Origin: a virus
Lineage: Duplodnaviria > Heunggongvirae > Uroviricota > Caudoviricetes
Reading direction: 5' to 3' (one strand)
DNA length: 64,000 nt
Virus record (IMG/VR): IMGVR_UViG_3300043436_002205
A model generated the notes under the pieces. The model was given only the letters and a program-made list of their open reading frames with translations. It did not search any database and was not told where the DNA came from. How positions within the stretch are numbered: position 1 is the first letter of the stretch; the number at the start of each line of letters is the position of its first letter. This document shows, in pieces, positions 24,701-48,929 of this stretch. A program made the position numbers and the translations under genes.

Positions 24701-27003
24701 AGGTAGAACTCGTAGTCTATCTCTCCAAACTGATCGTGAGATGGTGTAAGTATCGTATATGAACCGGAGAAGCTCGGCGCAACGTTAACACCTGTTGATC
24801 CATTGCTTACAGTTGGCGCTGTACCAAGAACAGCCGCATTTATATATGTGGCCGGCGATAGCGGTTGTACGTATGGTCTAAAGTCAAGACAGTCTCTGAG
24901 ATTATAGACCTTTCCTGAAGATGAAACGAACGGCTGTATCTTATTCTTGGCGACAGCACCAGGGTAACTATCTACAGTAAAGAAGTAGCTTCCTGTTGTG
25001 TCGTTTAGTTTAAATGCTTTAAAACGAACTGTCATTAAACCGGCCGCGGGTACTGGTCTTCCAGGAATATATTCTATATAAGAATGATCGTAGAAGTTAT
25101 CTCTTTGGTTGGTTTTAAGCTTAAAGCTAGAAGTAACAGTTTTGCTTTCTGAGTCTGTAATAGAGACGATCTCATACACATCTGGAAAACCTAGATTATA
25201 TCTAGTTGTGGATGATACGATGTCGTTATTTGCGAAGGTGCACTTAACATATAGTTCAGCGCTAACTTTCGTAAACGGGCTTGCACTAGTAATTCTCTTA
25301 TTGTAATAGATCGTAGAAGGAGTCGATGGTGTAGAACCAAGGGTGACTTGGAGGTCAGCACCAGATAGAACAGCACTAGTCACATCTCTTCTAGTACTTG
25401 TGTTATCTACAAAGAGTATATCATCATTCTCTAGATTAAAATCTTCGCCAGCGTCAGGCGTGATGTTAAAAGTAGTAGCAGTTCCAGTAATAGTTTTTCT
25501 TGCTCTTACTGGAATTGACAGGTTGCTAGTAGATTTAAGACTCAGCATTCCCGTGTCAAATACCATTGATGAAGAACTTGTTTCTTTTATAACAGAATTG
25601 TTTGCAACTGGTATGTACCCGGAAGTTCCAACAACTCTTTCCACTTGCGATATCTGATTAGCACCCGACAATCTAACATCAAACAGGAAGATTTTGGTAT
25701 CAGTGATGTTACGAACTCTCGCAGTTCCTAGGACAGAGTTTCCACCGTCTCTGAGAGAAACGGTTGCAAATGTTCCTAATGGGACTACGCCTCCTACGCT
25801 AGTATCGAGTATGTCAAGGTACCCGCCATAGTTAAAAGATACGCCCTGATTTGCTCTATCATCAACCGAAGCTTCCGATATGTCATCTATATCGAGGAAA
25901 ATCTCTCTAAGATTTTCTACTCTATGACCCTTAACATACGCGACTCCACTTCCGATAGAAGCTTTTAGATTACCATCTCTTCTTACGACTGTAGTTTGAA
26001 AGTCATTGACAATGTAGTCACCAGATTCTTCATACGTGCGACGAGCCATCTCTTCGCCTAAAATGTTATACTGTGATACGTCTCTAAGAAGAACTGCATT
26101 ACCGTTTACATAGCGTGTAAGAGTAAAGAATGTAGTGTCAGCATCAGCTTCAGAAGTTGGAAGAGCTGTAAGTATTGGAATAAGTTTTAGTCTATCTGCG
26201 CCAGGAGCATTTTGGTTAAAAGATCCGTTTGCATTGTCATATAGAGACGAGTCTTGGAACGCATTAATTACTCTTTCCTGAACTGTGTAACCTATCGACA
26301 CACTGTTCGGTACATTCGTATACTTTGAAACAATTACAAGCTGCTCTTCAGCGTATAGGAAGTGACCCTTTTGGAATATGATACCTGGCGCAGATTTAAG
26401 TCCGAAAGAGTTGCCAACTGCCCCAGCGAACGTAGTAACGTTGATAGTCTTATCAGTCAGAACTTCTGTTTCGTCTCTATTGATGCTCGTTCCTTGTTCG
26501 TACACACTTACTTTGTATATTCTAAGTCTTTCGCCAGCCTGAAAGACTTTATTTCCAGAAGATGTTGTTTTGTAGTTAATAAAGAACGTGTTAAGATCTG
26601 GGTTTCTTGTTTCAAAACCACGCGTCGCAGCTAAGACGGTCGCTCGGACTCCTGTCACAACTCCTTCGAGTTCGTATGTGTTATCTCTTACGTAATCAAC
26701 ACCGCTTATAGTGACCGTATCTGTAAATCCAACATATTGAGTTGGGTCAAATCCAGTAACATCCGTAAGCTTAACGTAGTTTAAGTCTGATAACTCTGTA
26801 AAGTTGCATCCCTTTATGATAGATCCTTCTTTAAATATATTATCACCAAACTGCTCGATCTGATTCTGAAGAATCGTTTGCATCTGAGTCAATTCTCTAG
26901 CTTGAACCGCGTAAGACGGTTTAAAAAGCACGCGATGGAACTGATTCGTTATATCAAAATCATCAAAGTACGGCGCAACATTCAGGTCTTTATTAATTGG
27001 CAT
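21724..27003 (-). CDS. Large baseplate-associated virion protein (DUF4815/VrlC-like)
   Basis: LNVAPYFDDFD...HRVLFKP.YAVQARELTQMQTILQNQI N-terminus. Confidence 0.85.
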   Translation of the reverse strand: MPINKDLNVAPYFDDFDITNQFHRVLFKPSYAVQARELTQMQTILQNQIEQFGDNIFKEGSIIKGCNFTELSDLNYVKLTDVTGFDPTQYVGFTDTVTISGVDYVRDNTYELEGVVTGVRATVLAATRGFETRNPDLNTFFINYKTTSSGNKVFQAGERLRIYKVSVYEQGTSINRDETEVLTDKTINVTTFAGAVGNSFGLKSAPGIIFQKGHFLYAEEQLVIVSKYTNVPNSVSIGYTVQERVINAFQDSSLYDNANGSFNQNAPGADRLKLIPILTALPTSEADADTTFFTLTRYVNGNAVLLRDVSQYNILGEEMARRTYEESGDYIVNDFQTTVVRRDGNLKASIGSGVAYVKGHRVENLREIFLDIDDISEASVDDRANQGVSFNYGGYLDILDTSVGGVVPLGTFATVSLRDGGNSVLGTARVRNITDTKIFLFDVRLSGANQISQVERVVGTSGYIPVANNSVIKETSSSSMVFDTGMLSLKSTSNLSIPVRARKTITGTATTFNITPDAGEDFNLENDDILFVDNTSTRRDVTSAVLSGADLQVTLGSTPSTPSTIYYNKRITSASPFTKVSAELYVKCTFANNDIVSSTTRYNLGFPDVYEIVSITDSESKTVTSSFKLKTNQRDNFYDHSYIEYIPGRPVPAAGLMTVRFKAFKLNDTTGSYFFTVDSYPGAVAKNKIQPFVSSSGKVYNLRDCLDFRPYVQPLSPATYINAAVLGTAPTVSNGSTGVNVAPSFSGSYTILTPSHDQFGEIDYEFYLNRTDAVILDSYGRISLLRGTEVENSIPPIISGDQVKIAEIFVPGAPALTPEEADEQDRPQYAVQIVPKGTKSYRMKDIENLEKKIDSLEYYVLLNTLEADTKNLNIVDENGLDRFKNGIIVDPFNDLSIANLENVEFNAALDFTEQSLMPSVKTFPLNLKYKSASSATLFPTTSNAKVGTLQRNTDVSIISQPYATEFRNCVSNFYSYRGIGEIEPEYDAVYDTVTNPVNIGLNRRRLTVSTAATQELNPLTSTAIQANTNNTNQRRVGDFVTNFTFNPFMRGRDINIYMSGLRPNTRHYFFFDEEDVNQFVFPGSNVNSPSEIRRRGVANAAVETDANGVLRAVFSLPSSRFYVGDRKLEVVDVDTHAAIDSASTSYGFVTYRAYNFSVEKASLTVSTRRAASTATTTTDRNVTRRPTEGDRGRDPSPDPIAQTFFIKSGMGLGSDTVFVSKIDLFFKRRSNINGVNVELREVINGYPSYDVIPFSKVHLTPSEVLTSDDASVETTVTFNAPVRLDVEKEYAVVVIPDAADPDYLIFTSKVGGVDLTPGANQGLPIVQDWGDGVLFTSTNNRAWKSYQDEDIKFVLYRHNFNASAGTITLTNDDHEFISTENNIGTFKVGETVYKLESKDGTTGANLSTVSGNNQISGTNLSATYSAGDFVLISNGTTNRQIFKVVSANSTVIVADRPSYFTDSTSGLPITMGILRHYDFRYPDFIILEESSATSTRKFAAGNTVYGFDSAAAATITTVDNVEFSYIQPMIHRTNDSVTATTLSGTLVDPANPSNTYSLPMQFNDKALFSKTGMVVYSKSNDIAREKTLDLTVSMSNNSNVTSSPFIDIETASILAYQWKITNDSTTTSKYISKTVELAENLDAEDFRIYVTGYRPRGTDIAVYIKVQSADDPTVFETNDWIELELTGGVNLYSSVSNVNDFKEYVYQVSNTNKNLGVITYTNGIGTFEGYRRFAIKIELLSEDIFKAPRLLDYRGISLT

Positions 27004-42149: not shown

Positions 42150-44018
42150 ATGGCAACATTAGACGACCTAAAAATAGTCCTAGAATCTATTAACACGAAC
42201 ATCTCTGGTCAGAGCTCCGTGTTGTCAAACATACTTGTTTTACAGCAAGGTATGTCTGCATCGCAACAAAGGGCATCACAGCTTGGGAGCGCAAATAGAA
42301 GCTCTTTAGGTGGAGCTTTATCTGGGATTGGCAGTATAGGAACTGGTATAGGCAGCGCAGTATCTAGTGTTGGTAATGTAGCATCGGGGATTGGAAGCGG
42401 AATAGGAAGCGCTGCGTCTGGCATCGGCATGGGTGTTGGGGCAGCTGGTCTTGGTATCGGTGCATTGCTAGCTGGTGGGGGTTATTTTTTACAAGCGCTT
42501 GAAGATTTTGATGGTGCAAAAGTAAAAGAAAACGTATTAGAGCTTTTCTCTATTTCTGAATCCTTCTCGGCTGGAATGTTACAGTTCTTTGCAGAAGGTG
42601 GCTTATTTGCAGCTGCAATGACAGGTATCGGTATAGGTTTAGCATCGTTCGGAGTTGGTAGTGCAGCGGCCGGATTGGCTGACGCCTTAAATAATTACTT
42701 AGGTGTAGATAACTGGGCTCAGAGTGTAAAAGATAATGTATTAACTCTACTATCAATTTCTGACGCCGCTGGAGGCAATATAGATTTTCTTCTTACAGGC
42801 GGAACGTTTGGTTTGGCGATGACTGGGCTGGCTCTCGGTCTTGCAGCATTCGGCATTGGCAGTGGAATTGCTGGCATTGGCGAAGTGCTTGCGCGGTTCG
42901 GCGGTGGAGAAGAGTGGGCGCAAAATACCAAGAATAACGTCCTAACATTACTATCTATTTCTGATTCTCTTGGTGGTAAACTAGAATCATTCGGTGAAAC
43001 CGGTACTTTCCTGGCAGTCATGAGTGGTATCGCAGCAGGTCTTGCATTGTTTGGGGCAGGTTCGGCTGGCGTAGGTATAGCAGAATTAATAAACAACACA
43101 GACTGGGCGCAAAAGATCAAAGACGACGTTGGAATATTAATGTCGATAGAAGATTCTCTTGGCGGCACAACTGAAGCATTCGGTGAAACTGGTACGTTCC
43201 TAGCAGCCATGACTGGCATAGGAACAGGTCTTGCAGTCTTTAGTGCAGGTAGTGCGATTTCAGGCCTGTCTGCCTTAATGAATGATGAAGATTGGGCACT
43301 TAAGATCAAGAGTGACGTGCTTGCGCTTCTTTCTATTGGCGACTCACTTCCTGGAGATGATACTTTTATTGGAGAAAGCAGCAAGTTTTTCTTATCGATG
43401 GTTGGTATTGGCGCTGGTCTTACAGCATTTGCCGCAGGTAACTTTGTAGGAACGATGGCCAACGCGGTCACGGCTGTCCTTTCATTCTTCGGTGTTGATA
43501 GCCCATTTGAACAGCTCATGAAATTGGCGGATAATGCCGATGAGCTTACTCAAGGAGCAGACGCATTAGATAGATTGACCGTATCTCTAGATAAGATCGG
43601 CCAACTTCAGTTTGATGGGAAAAAACTTAGAATAAGAGAGTTTGCTGAAGATCTTAAGGAAGCAGTTCCTATTATAGAAGCCGCGATCATGGGAGAAGAA
43701 GGCGGATATATCTTTGGCGCCGCGATCAAAGGGCTAGCTTCTCCGGATGTTGATTACGATACTGCTATTAAGAATATCGTAATGTTAAGACAAGCTCTCT
43801 CGGGTGTTGTCTCAGAAGATACCGTAAGTGGTATAGCAACTGTGAATGGCGCTGGAGCAGGCGGCGGTGCTCAGCAAGTTAATGTCAATGTAGACAATAG
43901 CGATAACAGTGTAACCAGTTCAAGCATTAACGGTGGAAGCCCTGCAACAACCGTGAATGTGATTGGGTCTAGCAGATCCGATCTAGACTTTCTATCACGC
44001 CCATCCGGCGCGCAATAA
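42150..44018 (+). CDS. Tail tape-measure protein (gp29-like)
   Basis: 622 aa, Gly/Ala-rich amphipathic repeats; follows gp26-gp51. Confidence 0.7.
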   Translation: MATLDDLKIVLESINTNISGQSSVLSNILVLQQGMSASQQRASQLGSANRSSLGGALSGIGSIGTGIGSAVSSVGNVASGIGSGIGSAASGIGMGVGAAGLGIGALLAGGGYFLQALEDFDGAKVKENVLELFSISESFSAGMLQFFAEGGLFAAAMTGIGIGLASFGVGSAAAGLADALNNYLGVDNWAQSVKDNVLTLLSISDAAGGNIDFLLTGGTFGLAMTGLALGLAAFGIGSGIAGIGEVLARFGGGEEWAQNTKNNVLTLLSISDSLGGKLESFGETGTFLAVMSGIAAGLALFGAGSAGVGIAELINNTDWAQKIKDDVGILMSIEDSLGGTTEAFGETGTFLAAMTGIGTGLAVFSAGSAISGLSALMNDEDWALKIKSDVLALLSIGDSLPGDDTFIGESSKFFLSMVGIGAGLTAFAAGNFVGTMANAVTAVLSFFGVDSPFEQLMKLADNADELTQGADALDRLTVSLDKIGQLQFDGKKLRIREFAEDLKEAVPIIEAAIMGEEGGYIFGAAIKGLASPDVDYDTAIKNIVMLRQALSGVVSEDTVSGIATVNGAGAGGGAQQVNVNVDNSDNSVTSSSINGGSPATTVNVIGSSRSDLDFLSRPSGAQ

Positions 44019-44043
44019 AAAAGGGAGCTTTCGCTCCCTTTTT
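44017..44043. terminator. Bidirectional rho-independent terminator
   Basis: AAAAAAGGGAGC-TTTC-GCTCCCTTTTT between convergent genes. Confidence 0.9.
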
Positions 44044-44046
44044 CAT

Positions 44047-44493
44047 TCACTCTAAAAGAAGTTCTTTATTACTTGCAATTGGAATTTTCTTTGGTTTCTT
44101 TTCCTCAGGTATCACGTTGAGCAATTGAACTCTGAGCATACCGTTCTCAAGAGATACACTGCTTACTTCAATCGTGTCCGCTAGAGTAAACTTACGAATA
44201 AAGCTTCTTGCTGCGATCCCTTTATGAAGGTAGTTCGTGACTGTTTCGTTTTCGGCGACTTCAGCACGAATAGTAAGAATACTGTTATGCAGTTCTACGT
44301 CAAAGTCTTTCTCGTTAAAACCTGCGACAGCAAGTTCAATTAGAAATGTATCTTCGCCCGTTTTAATTAAATTGTATGGTGGATAGTTTGATGCATTGGA
44401 TTTATTAATTTGATCGAACTTATCTAAGAACGAGTCAAAACCAATGAAGAATGGATCATTTAATAGATCTAGGTTTATTCTACGAGTATTCAT
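44047..44493 (-). CDS. hsp20: Small heat-shock protein Hsp20 (IbpA-like)
   Basis: DPFFIGFD, NYPPYNLI, IELAVAGF, YLHKGIAARSF, LENGML. Confidence 0.95.
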   Translation of the reverse strand: MNTRRINLDLLNDPFFIGFDSFLDKFDQINKSNASNYPPYNLIKTGEDTFLIELAVAGFNEKDFDVELHNSILTIRAEVAENETVTNYLHKGIAARSFIRKFTLADTIEVSSVSLENGMLRVQLLNVIPEEKKPKKIPIASNKELLLE

Positions 44494-44575
44494 ATCTTTC
44501 TCCTTATTAAAGCGAGTTGTGTTTAACCGTCATCTGACCGGTTTATAAAAGCGGAGACCCGATTGGCATCTCCGC
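44491..44575 (-). promoter_or_regulatory. ROSE-like RNA thermometer candidate in the hsp20 5' UTR
   Basis: Three hairpins; the last, CUCGCUU-UAAU-AAGGAG, pairs the SD with a bulged G of a UCGCU motif. Confidence 0.6.
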
Positions 44576-44578
44576 ATT

Positions 44579-44586
44579 TATTTATA
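44579..44586 (-). promoter_or_regulatory. Late promoter TATAAATA upstream of the hsp20 leader
   Basis: Exact consensus 3 nt before hairpin I. Confidence 0.65.
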
Positions 44587-44650: not shown

Positions 44651-45256
44651 TTACTTGTGATTAAGTTCATCAGCCATTTCATGATTTCTATCCCTGTGAC
44701 CTGCTTCATCTTCTCTTACTACGAGAACAACGTCACGTAGAGTTGCGTCTTCTGGCAGCTTCCAATAATCAATTGCGATCCTTGGAGCCGGAACGTTCTG
44801 TATCTTTCCGCTGTCTATCTCAGAAAGAAACTCTGTATAGGATCGAACGGCTTCTTCTTCAAAGTAACCAATGATGCGATGTGCAGTCTTTGGAAAAAAG
44901 AAATATACGATTGCATAGAAACCAACAAAGATTGCCTGTGCGATTAAGATGATGATACGCTCAAACATATTTGGTTTTGCGAGTTCAACGAATGTCATAA
45001 GATGCATACGTTCGTTATCTGCTTCATCTAAAAGTTCTTTAATCCAACCTCGATCGTCTTTCATTGTGCGCAAAGATTTAAGATGCAATCCTGCGCCCGC
45101 GACCATTCCTGGTACTGCCGCCACGGTCTCTAGAACCACAGCTCGATGACCGTATCTCTTTTTAAAGAAGGTATCCGCAATAAAGCGAAGGGCCTTTGTA
45201 AAGCCCAACGCGATCCTATCAGAAACATCCTTTGGTGCGTGATGTTTCTCTGTCAT
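44651..45256 (-). CDS. aox: Alternative oxidase (ubiquinol oxidase, AOX)
   Basis: LETVAAVPGM, EADNERMHL, YFEEEAVRSY, EDEAGH di-iron motifs. Confidence 0.95.
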   Translation of the reverse strand: MTEKHHAPKDVSDRIALGFTKALRFIADTFFKKRYGHRAVVLETVAAVPGMVAGAGLHLKSLRTMKDDRGWIKELLDEADNERMHLMTFVELAKPNMFERIIILIAQAIFVGFYAIVYFFFPKTAHRIIGYFEEEAVRSYTEFLSEIDSGKIQNVPAPRIAIDYWKLPEDATLRDVVLVVREDEAGHRDRNHEMADELNHK

Positions 45257-45259
45257 ATA

Positions 45260-45481
45260 TTAGTCCTTCTTAGAAACAAAGGTGTACATTTCCTGAGCCT
45301 TCTTCATAAGGTCGTCAGTAGAATACATTTTTGCGGCTTCTTGATATTCTTCGAAGGTCTTTCTACCTTCTTCCATGGACTTTTGCATGAAATTCAAATT
45401 CATATGATAGCTTTGATCCATATAATCCTTGGCAAGCTGAAGGATCTCTGCGCGGATCTCGAATGGGTTCTTAGTGGTCAT
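45260..45481 (-). CDS. Conserved small phage protein (KNPFEIR.E.L.LAKDY)
   Basis: 73 aa, GGAG SD, helical. Confidence 0.65.
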   Translation of the reverse strand: MTTKNPFEIRAEILQLAKDYMDQSYHMNLNFMQKSMEEGRKTFEEYQEAAKMYSTDDLMKKAQEMYTFVSKKD

Positions 45482-45504: not shown

Positions 45505-46014
45505 TTAAGAGATCCCGGTGCTTCCGAAACCTCCGTTTCTTTCCGTCTTCTGAGACGGTCTCTCTTCTACTTCTTCGATGGTATACACCAAAGTCTTCTC
45601 AAGCATTGCCTGCGCAATGCGTTCGCCATCCTCGATGATGACTACTGCATCCGATGTATTCTGTAGAATCACATATGTTTCTTCTACATAATCGGAATCT
45701 ATAATACCGGTTCCATTCGCAAGAACTAGACTCTTTTTTAGCGACGAACCGGATCTCGGATATATCTTTAGGACGTGACCTTCTGGAATATCAAAGATAA
45801 GACCAGTTGGTATTAACATTTTCTGCATTGGATACAACTGCACGCATACTTTATTATTGATAACACGCGCATGTGATACAGATTCTTTATTTAGAGCATT
45901 GTAGTACGTGATCTTGCTGTTATTATCAAAACATGCTTTAATATCAAAGCAAGCAGAACCGGTCGTAGAAAACTTTGGTAGTTCTGCTTTTTTATTTAAA
46001 CGAAACGCCTTCAT
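45505..46014 (-). CDS. dut: Trimeric dUTPase
   Basis: SACFDI, IPTG, YPRSG, GIIDSDY, ERIAQ, RNGGFGSTG. Confidence 0.95.
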   Translation of the reverse strand: MKAFRLNKKAELPKFSTTGSACFDIKACFDNNSKITYYNALNKESVSHARVINNKVCVQLYPMQKMLIPTGLIFDIPEGHVLKIYPRSGSSLKKSLVLANGTGIIDSDYVEETYVILQNTSDAVVIIEDGERIAQAMLEKTLVYTIEEVEERPSQKTERNGGFGSTGIS

Positions 46015-46030
46015 AATATAATTCCTTAAA

Positions 46031-46435
46031 TTACTTCTTTTTTCCGATATTATACTTTGGTTCTAATATCCATTCATCTTTTTCTTTATGCGATAGTATC
46101 TTTATCTGGCTAAGTGGAGCAACCGGATCTTCAGACTTGGATGGGTCGACTATCTTAAGTAGATCCCATTCTTCTAGGAGGTTTATTACAGTGTTTCTTC
46201 TAGATCTATCTTCGTCAGCAAAAGTATTCTCTTTACCGTCAAGTATAAACAGTTCTTTAAAGTGAAGAATCGCATAGCGCCCTTGCTTGTGTAGAATATG
46301 GCAGGACTGATATAGTTTCTTTTCTTTTTTCGAGGATATACCAATACGAGTTAACGTTTCTTTTATCTTAAGAAAGTTATCAGGATTCGGAAGTGTTATC
46401 TCTACGCCAACCCCTCGGAATAAGTCTTTCTCCAT
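46031..46435 (-). CDS. regA: Translational repressor RegA (likely start MEKDLF)
   Basis: DNFLKIKETLTRIGI, LYQSCHILHKQGRY.I.HFKELF.LDG. Confidence 0.95.
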   Translation of the reverse strand: MEKDLFRGVGVEITLPNPDNFLKIKETLTRIGISSKKEKKLYQSCHILHKQGRYAILHFKELFILDGKENTFADEDRSRRNTVINLLEEWDLLKIVDPSKSEDPVAPLSQIKILSHKEKDEWILEPKYNIGKKK

Positions 46436-46496
46436 GATGAGTTCACCTTTATAGTTATTATTATTGCGATGATGCTCATAAAGACCATCCGAGTAT

Positions 46497-46904
46497 TTAT
46501 AATTTAGCTTCTCCACCTTTGTTGAATCTCTTATGAAGCTTAACCAGGTCTTCCTTAGACATAACTTTCAGATACATCTTTGCGACGGTTCTGTTCACCG
46601 AGTAGTGTTCCTGAATTGCATCAAGGTCTGGGTTCTTCTCTTCCTTGAGCCATTTTGAAAAACGATTGCGTGGACGCAGGGCACCGAGATAATACCGGTA
46701 CTGCGCGTCTTTGAATAGATGATGATTGATATTCATCGTGTTAGCATGTAGTATACTATCTTCAAAGGCAGCGAATGCTCGGTTTACAATAAACGGAACA
46801 TACTGCTTCTCAGCTTGTTCTGGATAGTCTGCCTCACGGATAAGATCCTTCTTATTATGAGATGCAGACTTTACAAAATCAAAAGGAGTCAAATCTTGAG
46901 GCAT
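46497..46904 (-). CDS. gp62: Clamp loader small subunit gp62
   Basis: YVPFIVNRA, ANTMN, RPRNRFSKW. Confidence 0.9.
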   Translation of the reverse strand: MPQDLTPFDFVKSASHNKKDLIREADYPEQAEKQYVPFIVNRAFAAFEDSILHANTMNINHHLFKDAQYRYYLGALRPRNRFSKWLKEEKNPDLDAIQEHYSVNRTVAKMYLKVMSKEDLVKLHKRFNKGGEAKL

Positions 46905-47085
46905 GCGCTTCATCCTTTATATCTGCAAAATCGTCAAAAGTTTTTGCGCATTCACTGCACATCTTTGCACTGTGAAGTCCTTCTGTAGATGAGTACTGCA
47001 GAGTGAACGCGCTGCTTTCTTTCAGATCTGTTTTACAAAAGAAACAGACTTTTGGTTTTTTAGAAAAGAAAGAAAGCCAACTCAT
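46879..47085 (-). CDS. Small CxxC..CxxC zinc-finger protein
   Basis: CFFC and CSEC; overlaps both neighbours. Confidence 0.55.
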   Translation of the reverse strand: MSWLSFFSKKPKVCFFCKTDLKESSAFTLQYSSTEGLHSAKMCSECAKTFDDFADIKDEAHASRFDSF

Positions 47086-48035
47086 TTATAGCTGGCCTCG
47101 AACATTACCTCCGTCAAGAAGGCAACCATATTGACTTCGTGGTCGGCAACGAAGCTAGACTTATACATATAATCAGCAAGAGTAACGATAAACCCTGGAA
47201 GACTCTTAAGTTCTACACGGTCTGTTGCGGCGTCATAGATGGTACGAAACATTTCATTCGCGTCTTGGTCACTGTTATTCGAACACCACTTGCGCATCTC
47301 AACGAAGTTCTTTTCTTTCAACATCAAAAAGAGTTGTTCGATCGACTCCTGCTTGATGTTTGTGAAGATACCCTCATCGATCCTACCTGATGCTGCATAA
47401 GATTGAAGTTCGGTAAGTACACGCCGAAAATCTGGGAAATGCCTTTCGATAATCTTTGCGACGACATCCTTATCGTGTTCTACGTTTTCTGCGTTTAGAA
47501 TTGCGAGAACACGTTTATAGAACTGAGCAGCCATCTTTGGACGATCTGACTTCTCAATCGTAAAGTCAACTTCAGAAAGACGAGAACGAAGTGGCTCGAT
47601 AACACGGTTCTTAAAGTTACACGTAAAGATAAAGCCACAGTTCTTTGAATATTCTTCGATAAAGTTACGAAGAGCAGGCTGAACGTTAGCTGCATTGAGA
47701 TAGTCGGCTTCATCAAGGATAACGTATTTACGACCACCACTGAATGAAACGGAAGATGCAAAGGTCGAGATCTCGTAACGAAGAGTATCGAGGTTAACAT
47801 TCAACGAACCGTTCTTTACGATGTAATCGCAACCGAGCTCGTTCAGCATTGCTTTCGCAATTGTGGTCTTACCCATACCTGGGCCACCAGTCAGTAGCAG
47901 GTTAGGAATGGATTTATCTGCAACGAATCTTTTGAAGACATCTTTAGTCTTCTGAGGAAGAATTGTATCCTCAATGACTCTGGGTCGATAACGTTCAACC
48001 CAGAGTACTTCTTCAGTATTTGTATCAAGTGCCAT
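47082..48035 (-). CDS. gp44: Clamp loader large subunit gp44
   Basis: LWVERYRP, GGPGMGKTT, ILDEAD, SRL, FPDFRR. Confidence 0.97.
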   Translation of the reverse strand: MALDTNTEEVLWVERYRPRVIEDTILPQKTKDVFKRFVADKSIPNLLLTGGPGMGKTTIAKAMLNELGCDYIVKNGSLNVNLDTLRYEISTFASSVSFSGGRKYVILDEADYLNAANVQPALRNFIEEYSKNCGFIFTCNFKNRVIEPLRSRLSEVDFTIEKSDRPKMAAQFYKRVLAILNAENVEHDKDVVAKIIERHFPDFRRVLTELQSYAASGRIDEGIFTNIKQESIEQLFLMLKEKNFVEMRKWCSNNSDQDANEMFRTIYDAATDRVELKSLPGFIVTLADYMYKSSFVADHEVNMVAFLTEVMFEASYK

Positions 48036-48070
48036 AATATAATCTCCGGTGTGGTGTGTAAGGTTGGAGC

Positions 48071-48262
48071 TCAGTTTTCAGTTTTTACCGGTTCCTTTGT
48101 TTCCTTTGGCTTATTCTGCTCAATGAATAGAGCAAACTTATCACGGATAGTACCAACAGTAGTAAGCTCAGAACCTTCGATAGCTCCGCGCTTAACACAG
48201 ATATCGATAATAGAAAGGACTGTGTAGATATCTTGAAGAGAGATGTTAACTTGTTCAGACAT
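48071..48262 (-). CDS. Conserved hypothetical protein (likely start MSEQVNIS)
   Basis: IIDICVKRGAIEGSEL..VG motif; AGGAG SD. Confidence 0.65.
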   Translation of the reverse strand: MSEQVNISLQDIYTVLSIIDICVKRGAIEGSELTTVGTIRDKFALFIEQNKPKETKEPVKTEN

Positions 48263-48263
48263 A

Positions 48264-48929
48264 TTACTCTCCTTTCTTGTACGTTGACTTAGAGTCAACA
48301 CCAACGTAATAGGATACATCAGCACCCTTGAAGAGCGATACACCCTTTGCGCAGAGAGTCACTTCGTAATCCTGAGGAAGCAACTTAAAGTTGTCAGTCT
48401 TAAGGATGAGAGTAAACGTGTCGTTGGTGGTACCAATCTCTACACCAAATGCGTCTGACGATTTGTTATTACTGTCGATTGCTCGAAGGAAGCACTTGCC
48501 ATCTTCGCCGACGAATGCGATTTCGCTAAACTGCAAAACACCAGCAGCCTTGATCACAGACTGAAGATCGGACCATTTCACGCTAACCGAAACGTCGGAA
48601 GAAGGAATGGCGATTTCTTTTTCTGGAGCTGCATGGACCATCGAGATGTCTGCATAGACATATTTCATCTTAAGCTTGCCTTCAGAGATGATGAAATGAT
48701 TTTCAAGGAATTCCACATCTGGGTCTTGATAAAGGCTCAGCATCGAAAGAAAACGTGAGAGATCATAGATAACAGCAGTGGTTGGGAACTGATCTTCAAT
48801 GTTTGCGATGGCGATGAAGTTTTTTTCCGGAGTAATCGTACGCAAGACCTGGCCAGGCTTCAGTACGATTGATTTGTTGATTGTAGCAAAACTCTTGAGA
48901 ATTGTAAGAGTGCGGTCAGAAAATTTCAT
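48264..48929 (-). CDS. gp45: Sliding clamp gp45
   Basis: TLTILKSFATINKSI, IYDLSRFLS, LPQDYEV. Confidence 0.95.
   Translation of the reverse strand: MKFSDRTLTILKSFATINKSIVLKPGQVLRTITPEKNFIAIANIEDQFPTTAVIYDLSRFLSMLSLYQDPDVEFLENHFIISEGKLKMKYVYADISMVHAAPEKEIAIPSSDVSVSVKWSDLQSVIKAAGVLQFSEIAFVGEDGKCFLRAIDSNNKSSDAFGVEIGTTNDTFTLILKTDNFKLLPQDYEVTLCAKGVSLFKGADVSYYVGVDSKSTYKKGE

Follow-up and report, generated by a model that had tools for sequence, protein, structure and literature searches.

The gene at 44651-45256 (minus strand) of the 64,000-nt window, the whole stretch of phage DNA analyzed here, encodes a predicted AOX-type (ubiquinol:oxygen) alternative oxidase. The source record comprises 217,966 bp and is 100% complete according to CheckV. 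The location in a complete genome, the phage flanks, the recurrence of the gene in other viral genomes, and the purifying selection acting on it identify it as a phage auxiliary metabolic gene (AMG). AOX enzymes oxidize ubiquinol and reduce O2 to water, without proton pumping and without haem. Taken together, the data make it likely that this is an accessory gene of uncultured T4-like phages with genomes of 195-283 kb, which infect marine alphaproteobacteria rather than cyanobacteria, and that its product would provide a bypass from ubiquinol to O2. The phage thus probably rewires host respiration during infection. The enzyme belongs to a known family; its carrier is under-described.

The uninterrupted ORF starts with ATG and encodes a protein of 201 aa. 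The original prediction had read it as an alternative oxidase of the AOX rather than the PTOX type, with intact di-iron motifs and the signature segments DNERMHLMTF and EEEAVRSY; the ORF boundaries were exact, both segments were found in the protein, and the assignment to the AOX type was upheld. The protein matched Pfam PF01786 with 278.4 bits (E 5e-83, cut-off 22.7). The alignment runs from profile position 11 to the final position, 216, and with a match over the full length, chance is of no concern. The PHROG search yielded no family for this protein, and in the PDB search the Trypanosoma brucei AOX (TAO) chains matched it at E 2e-47. The conservation of motifs was scored on an alignment of 57 AOX homologues, comprising bacterial and viral rows. 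All six iron ligands (E43, E82, H85, E134, E184, and H187), which belong to the LET, NERMH, EEE, and DEAxH segments, are present in the protein and kept in 56-57 of the 57 rows; the same holds for N81, D183, and the catalytic tyrosine, Y140. R38, the arginine of the quinol site, is conserved in 52-53 rows and W165 in 52-57. According to published diagnostic rules, AOX proteins are recognized by the motifs ERMHLMT and LEEEA, and PTOX proteins by GWxRR and HHLLxME (bioRxiv 10.1101/2021.01.20.427478). The first AOX motif occurs exactly at residues 82-88 and is invariant across the viral clade. At the position of the second, the phage protein reads FEEEA instead of the plant-derived LEEEA; the residue preceding EEEA is F in 37 and L in 19 of the 57 rows, and a rule drawn from plant sequences appears overly strict for the bacterial enzymes. 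Neither PTOX motif was detected in the phage protein. The protein contains no cysteine, and the redox switch of plant AOX therefore cannot apply to it.

The AlphaFold2 model built on the homologue alignment had a mean pLDDT of 92.7 and a pTM of 0.88. The predicted fold superposed on the TAO structures 9kun/3vv9 with a TM-score of 0.95 and an rmsd of 1.5 Å, at about 42% identity in the structural alignment, and the next-best folds were bacterioferritins (TM about 0.5). A hydrophobic membrane-binding helix was located at approximately residues 97-120; its most hydrophobic stretch (101-119) maps in the predicted model to the helix that docks TAO onto the membrane. The protein is accordingly modeled as a four-helix-bundle di-iron core with two amphipathic or hydrophobic helices for membrane docking. 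Di-iron carboxylate folds serve many chemistries, and the phage protein might have been repurposed, either to lower O2 for O2-sensitive phage enzymes or for a non-quinol hydroxylation, maybe linked to nearby base modification. We consider such a role very improbable: the phage protein shares 64-72% of its residues with cellular AOX, its modeled fold is near-identical to that of TAO, the residues of the quinol site are kept along with the hydrophobic membrane helix, purifying selection extends over the whole length, and the gene is missing in close relatives that keep the neighbors phrog1574, orf207, and a C5-methyltransferase-like gene.

The distinction from PTOX was clear by score, identity, and phylogeny. 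The PTOX proteins of cyanophages Syn9, S-SSM7, P-SSM4, and S-SCSM2R scored 40-44 bits on PF01786, against 278 for the phage AOX, to which they are 22-30% identical. In the 139-row tree, the phage protein was nested in proteobacterial AOX, and a branch of 4.42 + 4.42 changes per site (about 8.8 in total), with a support of 100, separated it from cyanophage PTOX. The paper describing S-SCSM2R reports a phage 'AOX' gene and cites bacterial AOX work (PMC12801897). This gene, ORF180 (PQ898602.1, 155271-155627; L190), encodes a protein matching PF01786 with 42.4 bits, 73% identical to the Syn9 PTOX and 24% identical to the phage AOX of 44651-45256, and is hence a PTOX. In the full-text literature outside subscription journals, viral 'alternative oxidases' were reported only from cyanophages and prasinoviruses, both of the PTOX lineage, and no published description of a ubiquinol-type AOX in a phage was found. 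The names in use constitute an annotation trap: the published 'AOX' of a cultured phage (S-SCSM2R) is a PTOX, and a real AOX-type gene, that of Phage C48C1, is labeled hypothetical.

Both trees placed the phage AOX in an all-viral clade (SH-aLRT 96-99) inside proteobacterial AOX. This clade groups at a support of 92 with SAR86 and a second marine clade, which includes Tara Oceans members, one of them on a 1.06-Mb contig. In a search of one genome per prokaryote species, the nearest cellular AOX proteins, taken as the best 80 loci, were 64-72% identical. Those of the 80 that were named to class or below belonged mostly to Alphaproteobacteria (Kiloniellaceae, Kordiimonas, Caulobacterales, and Rhodobacterales), together with a few Gammaproteobacteria (Lysobacter, Woeseiaceae, and SAR86), and no cyanobacterial AOX was among them. 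The viral clade is separate from every cellular sequence, with at most 73% identity. A first AU test, which counted the sequence P0180 (origin not known, pairing strongly with C48C1) as non-viral, rejected a single viral clade (p 2e-05), an artefact of that count. When rows of unknown origin were left out, a single viral clade was not rejected (p-AU 0.62) and was 6 log-likelihood units better; the proposal of at least three independent AOX acquisitions was dropped on this ground. What does differ among the phage AOX types is the insertion site.

The AOX gene lies downstream of a T4-type replication block at 46031..48929, all genes of which are on the minus strand: gp45 (48264-48929), gp44 (47082-48035), a small ORF (46879-47085), gp62 (46497-46913), and regA (46031-46516). 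The dUTPase gene (45505..46014, minus strand; PF00692 71.6 bits, phrog_135) is the final recognizable gene of this replication and nucleotide block ahead of a flexible slot. It is located 23 nt upstream of orf73 (45260..45481, minus strand), which encodes a small conserved helical protein of 73 aa that matched no Pfam or PHROG family; a gap of 3 nt separates the stop codon of orf73 from the start of AOX. An AAGGA Shine-Dalgarno sequence for AOX is situated inside the 3' end of orf73 (45264-45268). The 3-nt and 23-nt gaps and the Shine-Dalgarno sequence suggest read-through from the replication genes, and judging from this spacing, AOX is probably co-transcribed with gp45, gp44, gp62, regA, dUTPase, and orf73. 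A scan for sigma-70 promoters returned 9 sites versus 10.2 expected from shuffles, which is no better than chance. At AOX-bearing loci, orf73 always precedes or follows AOX. Its role as an AOX partner was ruled out, since it also occurs in AOX-less relatives (L109, L110, L112, L119, and others). Across the phage group, orf73 is kept beside hsp20 or AOX, and its order relative to hsp20 flips between sublineages. Genes for baseplate, tail, and a DNA polymerase of the T4 type are located farther out; no CBB3-type-domain cytochrome c was found in the genome. Megablast of the 12 kb around AOX returned no match among GenBank phages.

The G+C content of the AOX gene is 42.7% (GC3 37%), compared to 41.9% for the genome, and its composition is fully ameliorated to that of the phage. 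The same slot holds AOX in more than 13 independent IMG/VR contigs from different samples; together with the phage-like G+C content, this shows that the contig is not chimeric at this position. The possibility that cellular DNA had entered the record through mis-assembly or mis-binning was tested and rejected for 44651-45256, and we assign it a negligible probability. One IMG/VR hit speaks for this possibility: the AOX of a record labeled 'provirus' (L017, IMGVR_UViG_3300039159_000814) is 63% identical to the phage protein, nests in Rhodobacterales AOX, and is probably a gene of the host flank and not a phage gene. Against it stand, for the gene studied here, the phage-flanked slot common to the contigs mentioned, the occurrence of the gene in two further complete genomes, of which one has terminal repeats, GC and GC3 values matching the phage, and a viral clade whose identity to cellular AOX nowhere exceeds 73%.

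On the other side, AOX adjoins the hsp20 gene for a small heat-shock protein (44047..44493, minus strand; PF00011, phrog_432), from which it is separated by a 157-nt spacer. The spacer contains TATAAATA, a T4-type late-promoter motif, at 44579..44586 (minus strand). In the 64,000-nt window this motif occurs in 11 copies versus 4.98 expected, and none of 100 shuffles reached 11. The motif is followed by a structured hsp20 leader (44515..44575, minus strand) resembling ROSE_3: the match to Rfam RF02523 covers model positions 1-69 of 69 with E 0.0063, and its 23.7 bits are sub-threshold (gathering 43). The fold of the whole spacer was predicted at -47.2 kcal/mol (z = -5.96). ROSE elements are characteristic of proteobacteria. 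With TATAAATA followed by hairpins, the leader region 44515-44586 makes hsp20 a candidate temperature-gated phage chaperone gene. The gene holds its position in nearly all relatives, whether AOX is present or absent. The original prediction had placed AOX in a stress block with hsp20; this part was not supported, as hsp20 stays in place without AOX and possesses its own TATAAATA late-promoter motif and ROSE-like leader. A single stress operon of AOX and hsp20 was ruled out on the same grounds. The independence of hsp20 from AOX and its separate unit indicate that AOX was inserted beside hsp20, in the flexible slot that ends the replication block, and that the two do not work as one functional unit.

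The hsp20 gene converges with an ORF at 42150-44018 (plus strand) encoding a Gly/Ala/Ser-rich protein of 622 aa, which had no Pfam or PHROG match. Between the two, a GC-rich hairpin followed by a T-run was read from the sequence at 44014..44040 (no strand assigned) and is likely a two-way terminator closing the block. The 622-aa protein contains several internal repeats of a 'DWAQ..K.NVL.LLSI.DS.GG' module, and homologues with 32-44% identity occupy the same place in four other loci (L008, L016, L110, and L141).

The survey of IMG/VR revealed 16 further loci carrying AOX in the same slot with 84-92% identity. Besides the source genome, two of the AOX-bearing genomes are complete, with sizes of 195 kb (with direct terminal repeats) and 283 kb. 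In a large protein collection, about 100 AOX clusters were found at 80-98% identity, several of them on contigs of 50-283 kb; below these clusters, identity steps down to about 72%, where the named bacterial AOX start. A total of 80 relatives were fetched through gp44, of which 30 continue for 2 kb or more beyond regA/dUTPase. AOX was carried by three of these 30, or by five of 32 when two shorter loci reaching AOX are counted (about 10-15%). It was absent from the slot in the pair of relatives with the most similar gp44 (85-88% identical), and one of this pair, the closest complete relative (201 kb), has no AOX anywhere in its genome. Being carried by few relatives and missing from the closest complete one, AOX is dispensable and perhaps niche-specific.

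When compared with eight related phages, the AOX protein was 84-92% identical, while the corresponding ranges were 40-67% for gp45, 54-80% for gp44, 42-56% for dUTPase, and 34-71% for hsp20. The dN values of AOX were 0.05-0.13, against 0.13-0.74 for the flanking core genes; its pS values were 0.64-0.88, near saturation, and omega was about 0.03, with values of about 0.016-0.04 where computable. With synonymous sites near saturation, the high protein identity reflects long-term purifying selection, and a recent horizontal sweep was ruled out by the same pS values. AOX is thus the best-conserved gene of its neighborhood, yet an accessory one.

Two further types of phage-borne AOX were distinguished. 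The second viral variant, 66-71% identical to the first, was found in the order dUTPase-hsp20-AOX-orf73 at loci L111, L122, L124, and L127, in phages with gp44 proteins 76-79% identical to that of the source phage. The third type belongs to Phage C48C1 (OQ984149.1), which is filed under Kyanoviridae; no other GenBank phage has a gene of the AOX type. The C48C1 gene (26279-26830; L001/L024), annotated as 'hypothetical protein', follows a tRNA-Thr between gp45 and gp44; the product is 54% identical to the phage AOX and reached 233 bits.

The DNA polymerase of the source phage was at best 45% identical to those of cultured phages, with cyanomyoviruses on top, and by this measure the phage represents a deep uncultured T4-like lineage. 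Searches of the complete genome with PF00124, PF00504, and PF00923 (psbA/psbD, hli, and talC) returned nothing, and psbA/psbD were likewise absent from nine related records, C48C1 among them. The genome encodes GapR (PF10073, 104.5 bits; G000:C1:181606-181821, L108), an alphaproteobacterial marker. Among the control genomes, the GapR profile matched Caulobacter alone. GapR was also present in two other complete AOX-bearing genomes (G002 and G003) but occurred neither in G001, the complete relative that lacks AOX, nor in C48C1; the co-occurrence of GapR and AOX is only a hint, resting on four or five genomes. The lack of psbA/psbD, hli, and talC, the presence of GapR, the ROSE-like leader of hsp20, and the absence of cyanobacterial loci among the 80 best cellular AOX matches make a non-cyanobacterial host probable. 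The host is most likely an alphaproteobacterium, and more generally a ubiquinone-respiring marine proteobacterium, GapR being a marker and not proof. A SAR86-like host is conceivable, the nearest neighbor in the AOX tree being gammaproteobacterial SAR86; with a support of 92, this placement is not decisive.

Were the host a cyanobacterium, the AOX-type enzyme would oxidize plastoquinol and stand in for the cyanophage PTOX. Plant AOX targeted to plastids can replace PTOX, hsp20 is typical of cyanomyoviruses, the cultured phages with the most similar DNA polymerase belong to the same group, and C48C1 carries a Kyanoviridae label. The polymerase identity is only 45%, however, and the photosynthesis-related genes listed above are missing from the complete genome, as are psbA/psbD from the nine related records; with GapR present and no cyanobacterial locus among the 80 best cellular AOX matches, we regard a cyanobacterial host as quite improbable.

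For a ubiquinone-respiring host, the following course of events is proposed. The phage AOX would dock onto the inner face of the host membrane and hand electrons from ubiquinol directly to O2 with no protons pumped, so that the quinone pool would stay oxidized at any membrane potential and in any state of the cytochrome branch. An oxidized pool could allow NADH dehydrogenase, succinate dehydrogenase, and the quinone-dependent dihydroorotate dehydrogenase of pyrimidine synthesis to continue working, and little ROS would arise from over-reduction as the phage draws on the cell's resources to make DNA. The enzyme would thereby act as the respiratory counterpart of the cyanophage PTOX safety valve. 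The roles in redox balance, nucleotide supply, and ROS control that the original prediction proposed are plausible. The placement of AOX downstream of the replication genes and dUTPase is compatible with a connection to nucleotide supply, though it is no proof of one.

A broader proposal is that the phage AOX forms one old viral lineage, mobile among T4-like phages of abundant ubiquinone-respiring, often proteorhodopsin-bearing marine bacteria (SAR86 or alphaproteobacterial plankton), where it would uncouple the re-oxidation of NADH and dihydroorotate from membrane potential and let nucleotide synthesis proceed at full speed. It starts from the p-AU of 0.62 for one origin of all three phage AOX types. 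We put this forward tentatively, as a possibility that we hold to be less probable than its opposite. If true, it would amount to a general 'respiratory AMG' strategy that parallels the photosynthetic AMGs of cyanophages, and the carbon respired per ATP in infected heterotrophs would change measurably.

The enzyme may instead serve as an inhibitor-proof or metal-sparing back-up oxidase when the haem-copper/bc1 branch fails, and not as an overflow valve; we find this rather unlikely. The triggers considered for it are NO, sulfide, cyanide, scarcity of Fe, Cu, or haem, and decay of the host complexes after shut-off in a long latent period. AOX requires just two iron atoms and no haem. Lacking cysteine and with it a plant-type redox switch, the phage enzyme would be constitutively active, and its patchy occurrence among close relatives fits a niche-dependent benefit. 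The AOX of Vibrio fischeri is reported to relieve nitric-oxide stress, as cited in PMC12801897. On the other hand, nothing at the locus indicates regulation by NO, sulfide, or metals, and AOX lies behind replication genes and not stress genes, hsp20 being a separate unit. A back-up oxidase and an overflow valve are not mutually exclusive.

Cyanophage psbA, petE, and PTOX tune photosynthetic electron flow and are the textbook case of viral reprogramming of host energy metabolism. To our knowledge, respiratory equivalents in phages of heterotrophic bacteria have barely been documented. AOX is under stronger constraint than the phage's own sliding clamp and recurs in approximately 100 clusters with no less than 80% identity; taken together, this suggests direct control of the host quinone pool by some of the phages that infect non-photosynthetic marine bacteria. 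An active enzyme would lower the energy yield of respiration in infected cells, which bears on bacterial growth efficiency and carbon flux; the minimal cysteine-free oxidases of 200 aa would, in that case, also be convenient compact AOX variants for biochemistry.

Among known systems, the bacterial AOX of Novosphingobium aromaticivorans, Vibrio fischeri, and marine alpha- and gammaproteobacteria share family and subfamily with the phage protein, those of the marine proteobacteria at 64-72% identity. They also have in common the FEEEA variant of the third iron motif, a short, cysteine-free sequence, and the lack of a mitochondrial presequence. The phage AOX differs from them in its location inside a T4-type replication module, its own viral clade, its phage-adapted G+C content, and a slightly smaller size (196-205 aa versus 211-235 aa). 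TAO (3VV9 and 9KUN) has identical iron ligands and the same catalytic tyrosine, and the phage model superposes closely on it, as given above. Unlike TAO, the phage protein has no N-terminal targeting sequence or arm; S139 replaces T219 of TAO (S in 53 of the 57 rows), and F replaces L before EEEA.

The prasinovirus 'alternative oxidases' are, like the phage AOX, virus-encoded members of the AOX/PTOX superfamily from marine plankton (PMC12584671). Their hosts are eukaryotic algae, and in the tree of that study they group with the PTOX of Micromonas, cyanophages, and Prochlorococcus and not with the ubiquinol AOX clade. The cyanophage PTOX proteins (Syn9, P-SSM4, S-SSM7, and S-SCSM2R) are likewise phage-borne, membrane-bound di-iron quinol oxidases of the PF01786 superfamily, and their presumed role in the infected cell is that of a safety valve for electrons. 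They differ from the phage AOX in the motifs LEVIARAPY, NETEHL, and DELEHA, in drawing on the plastoquinol pool, and in their cyanobacterial hosts.
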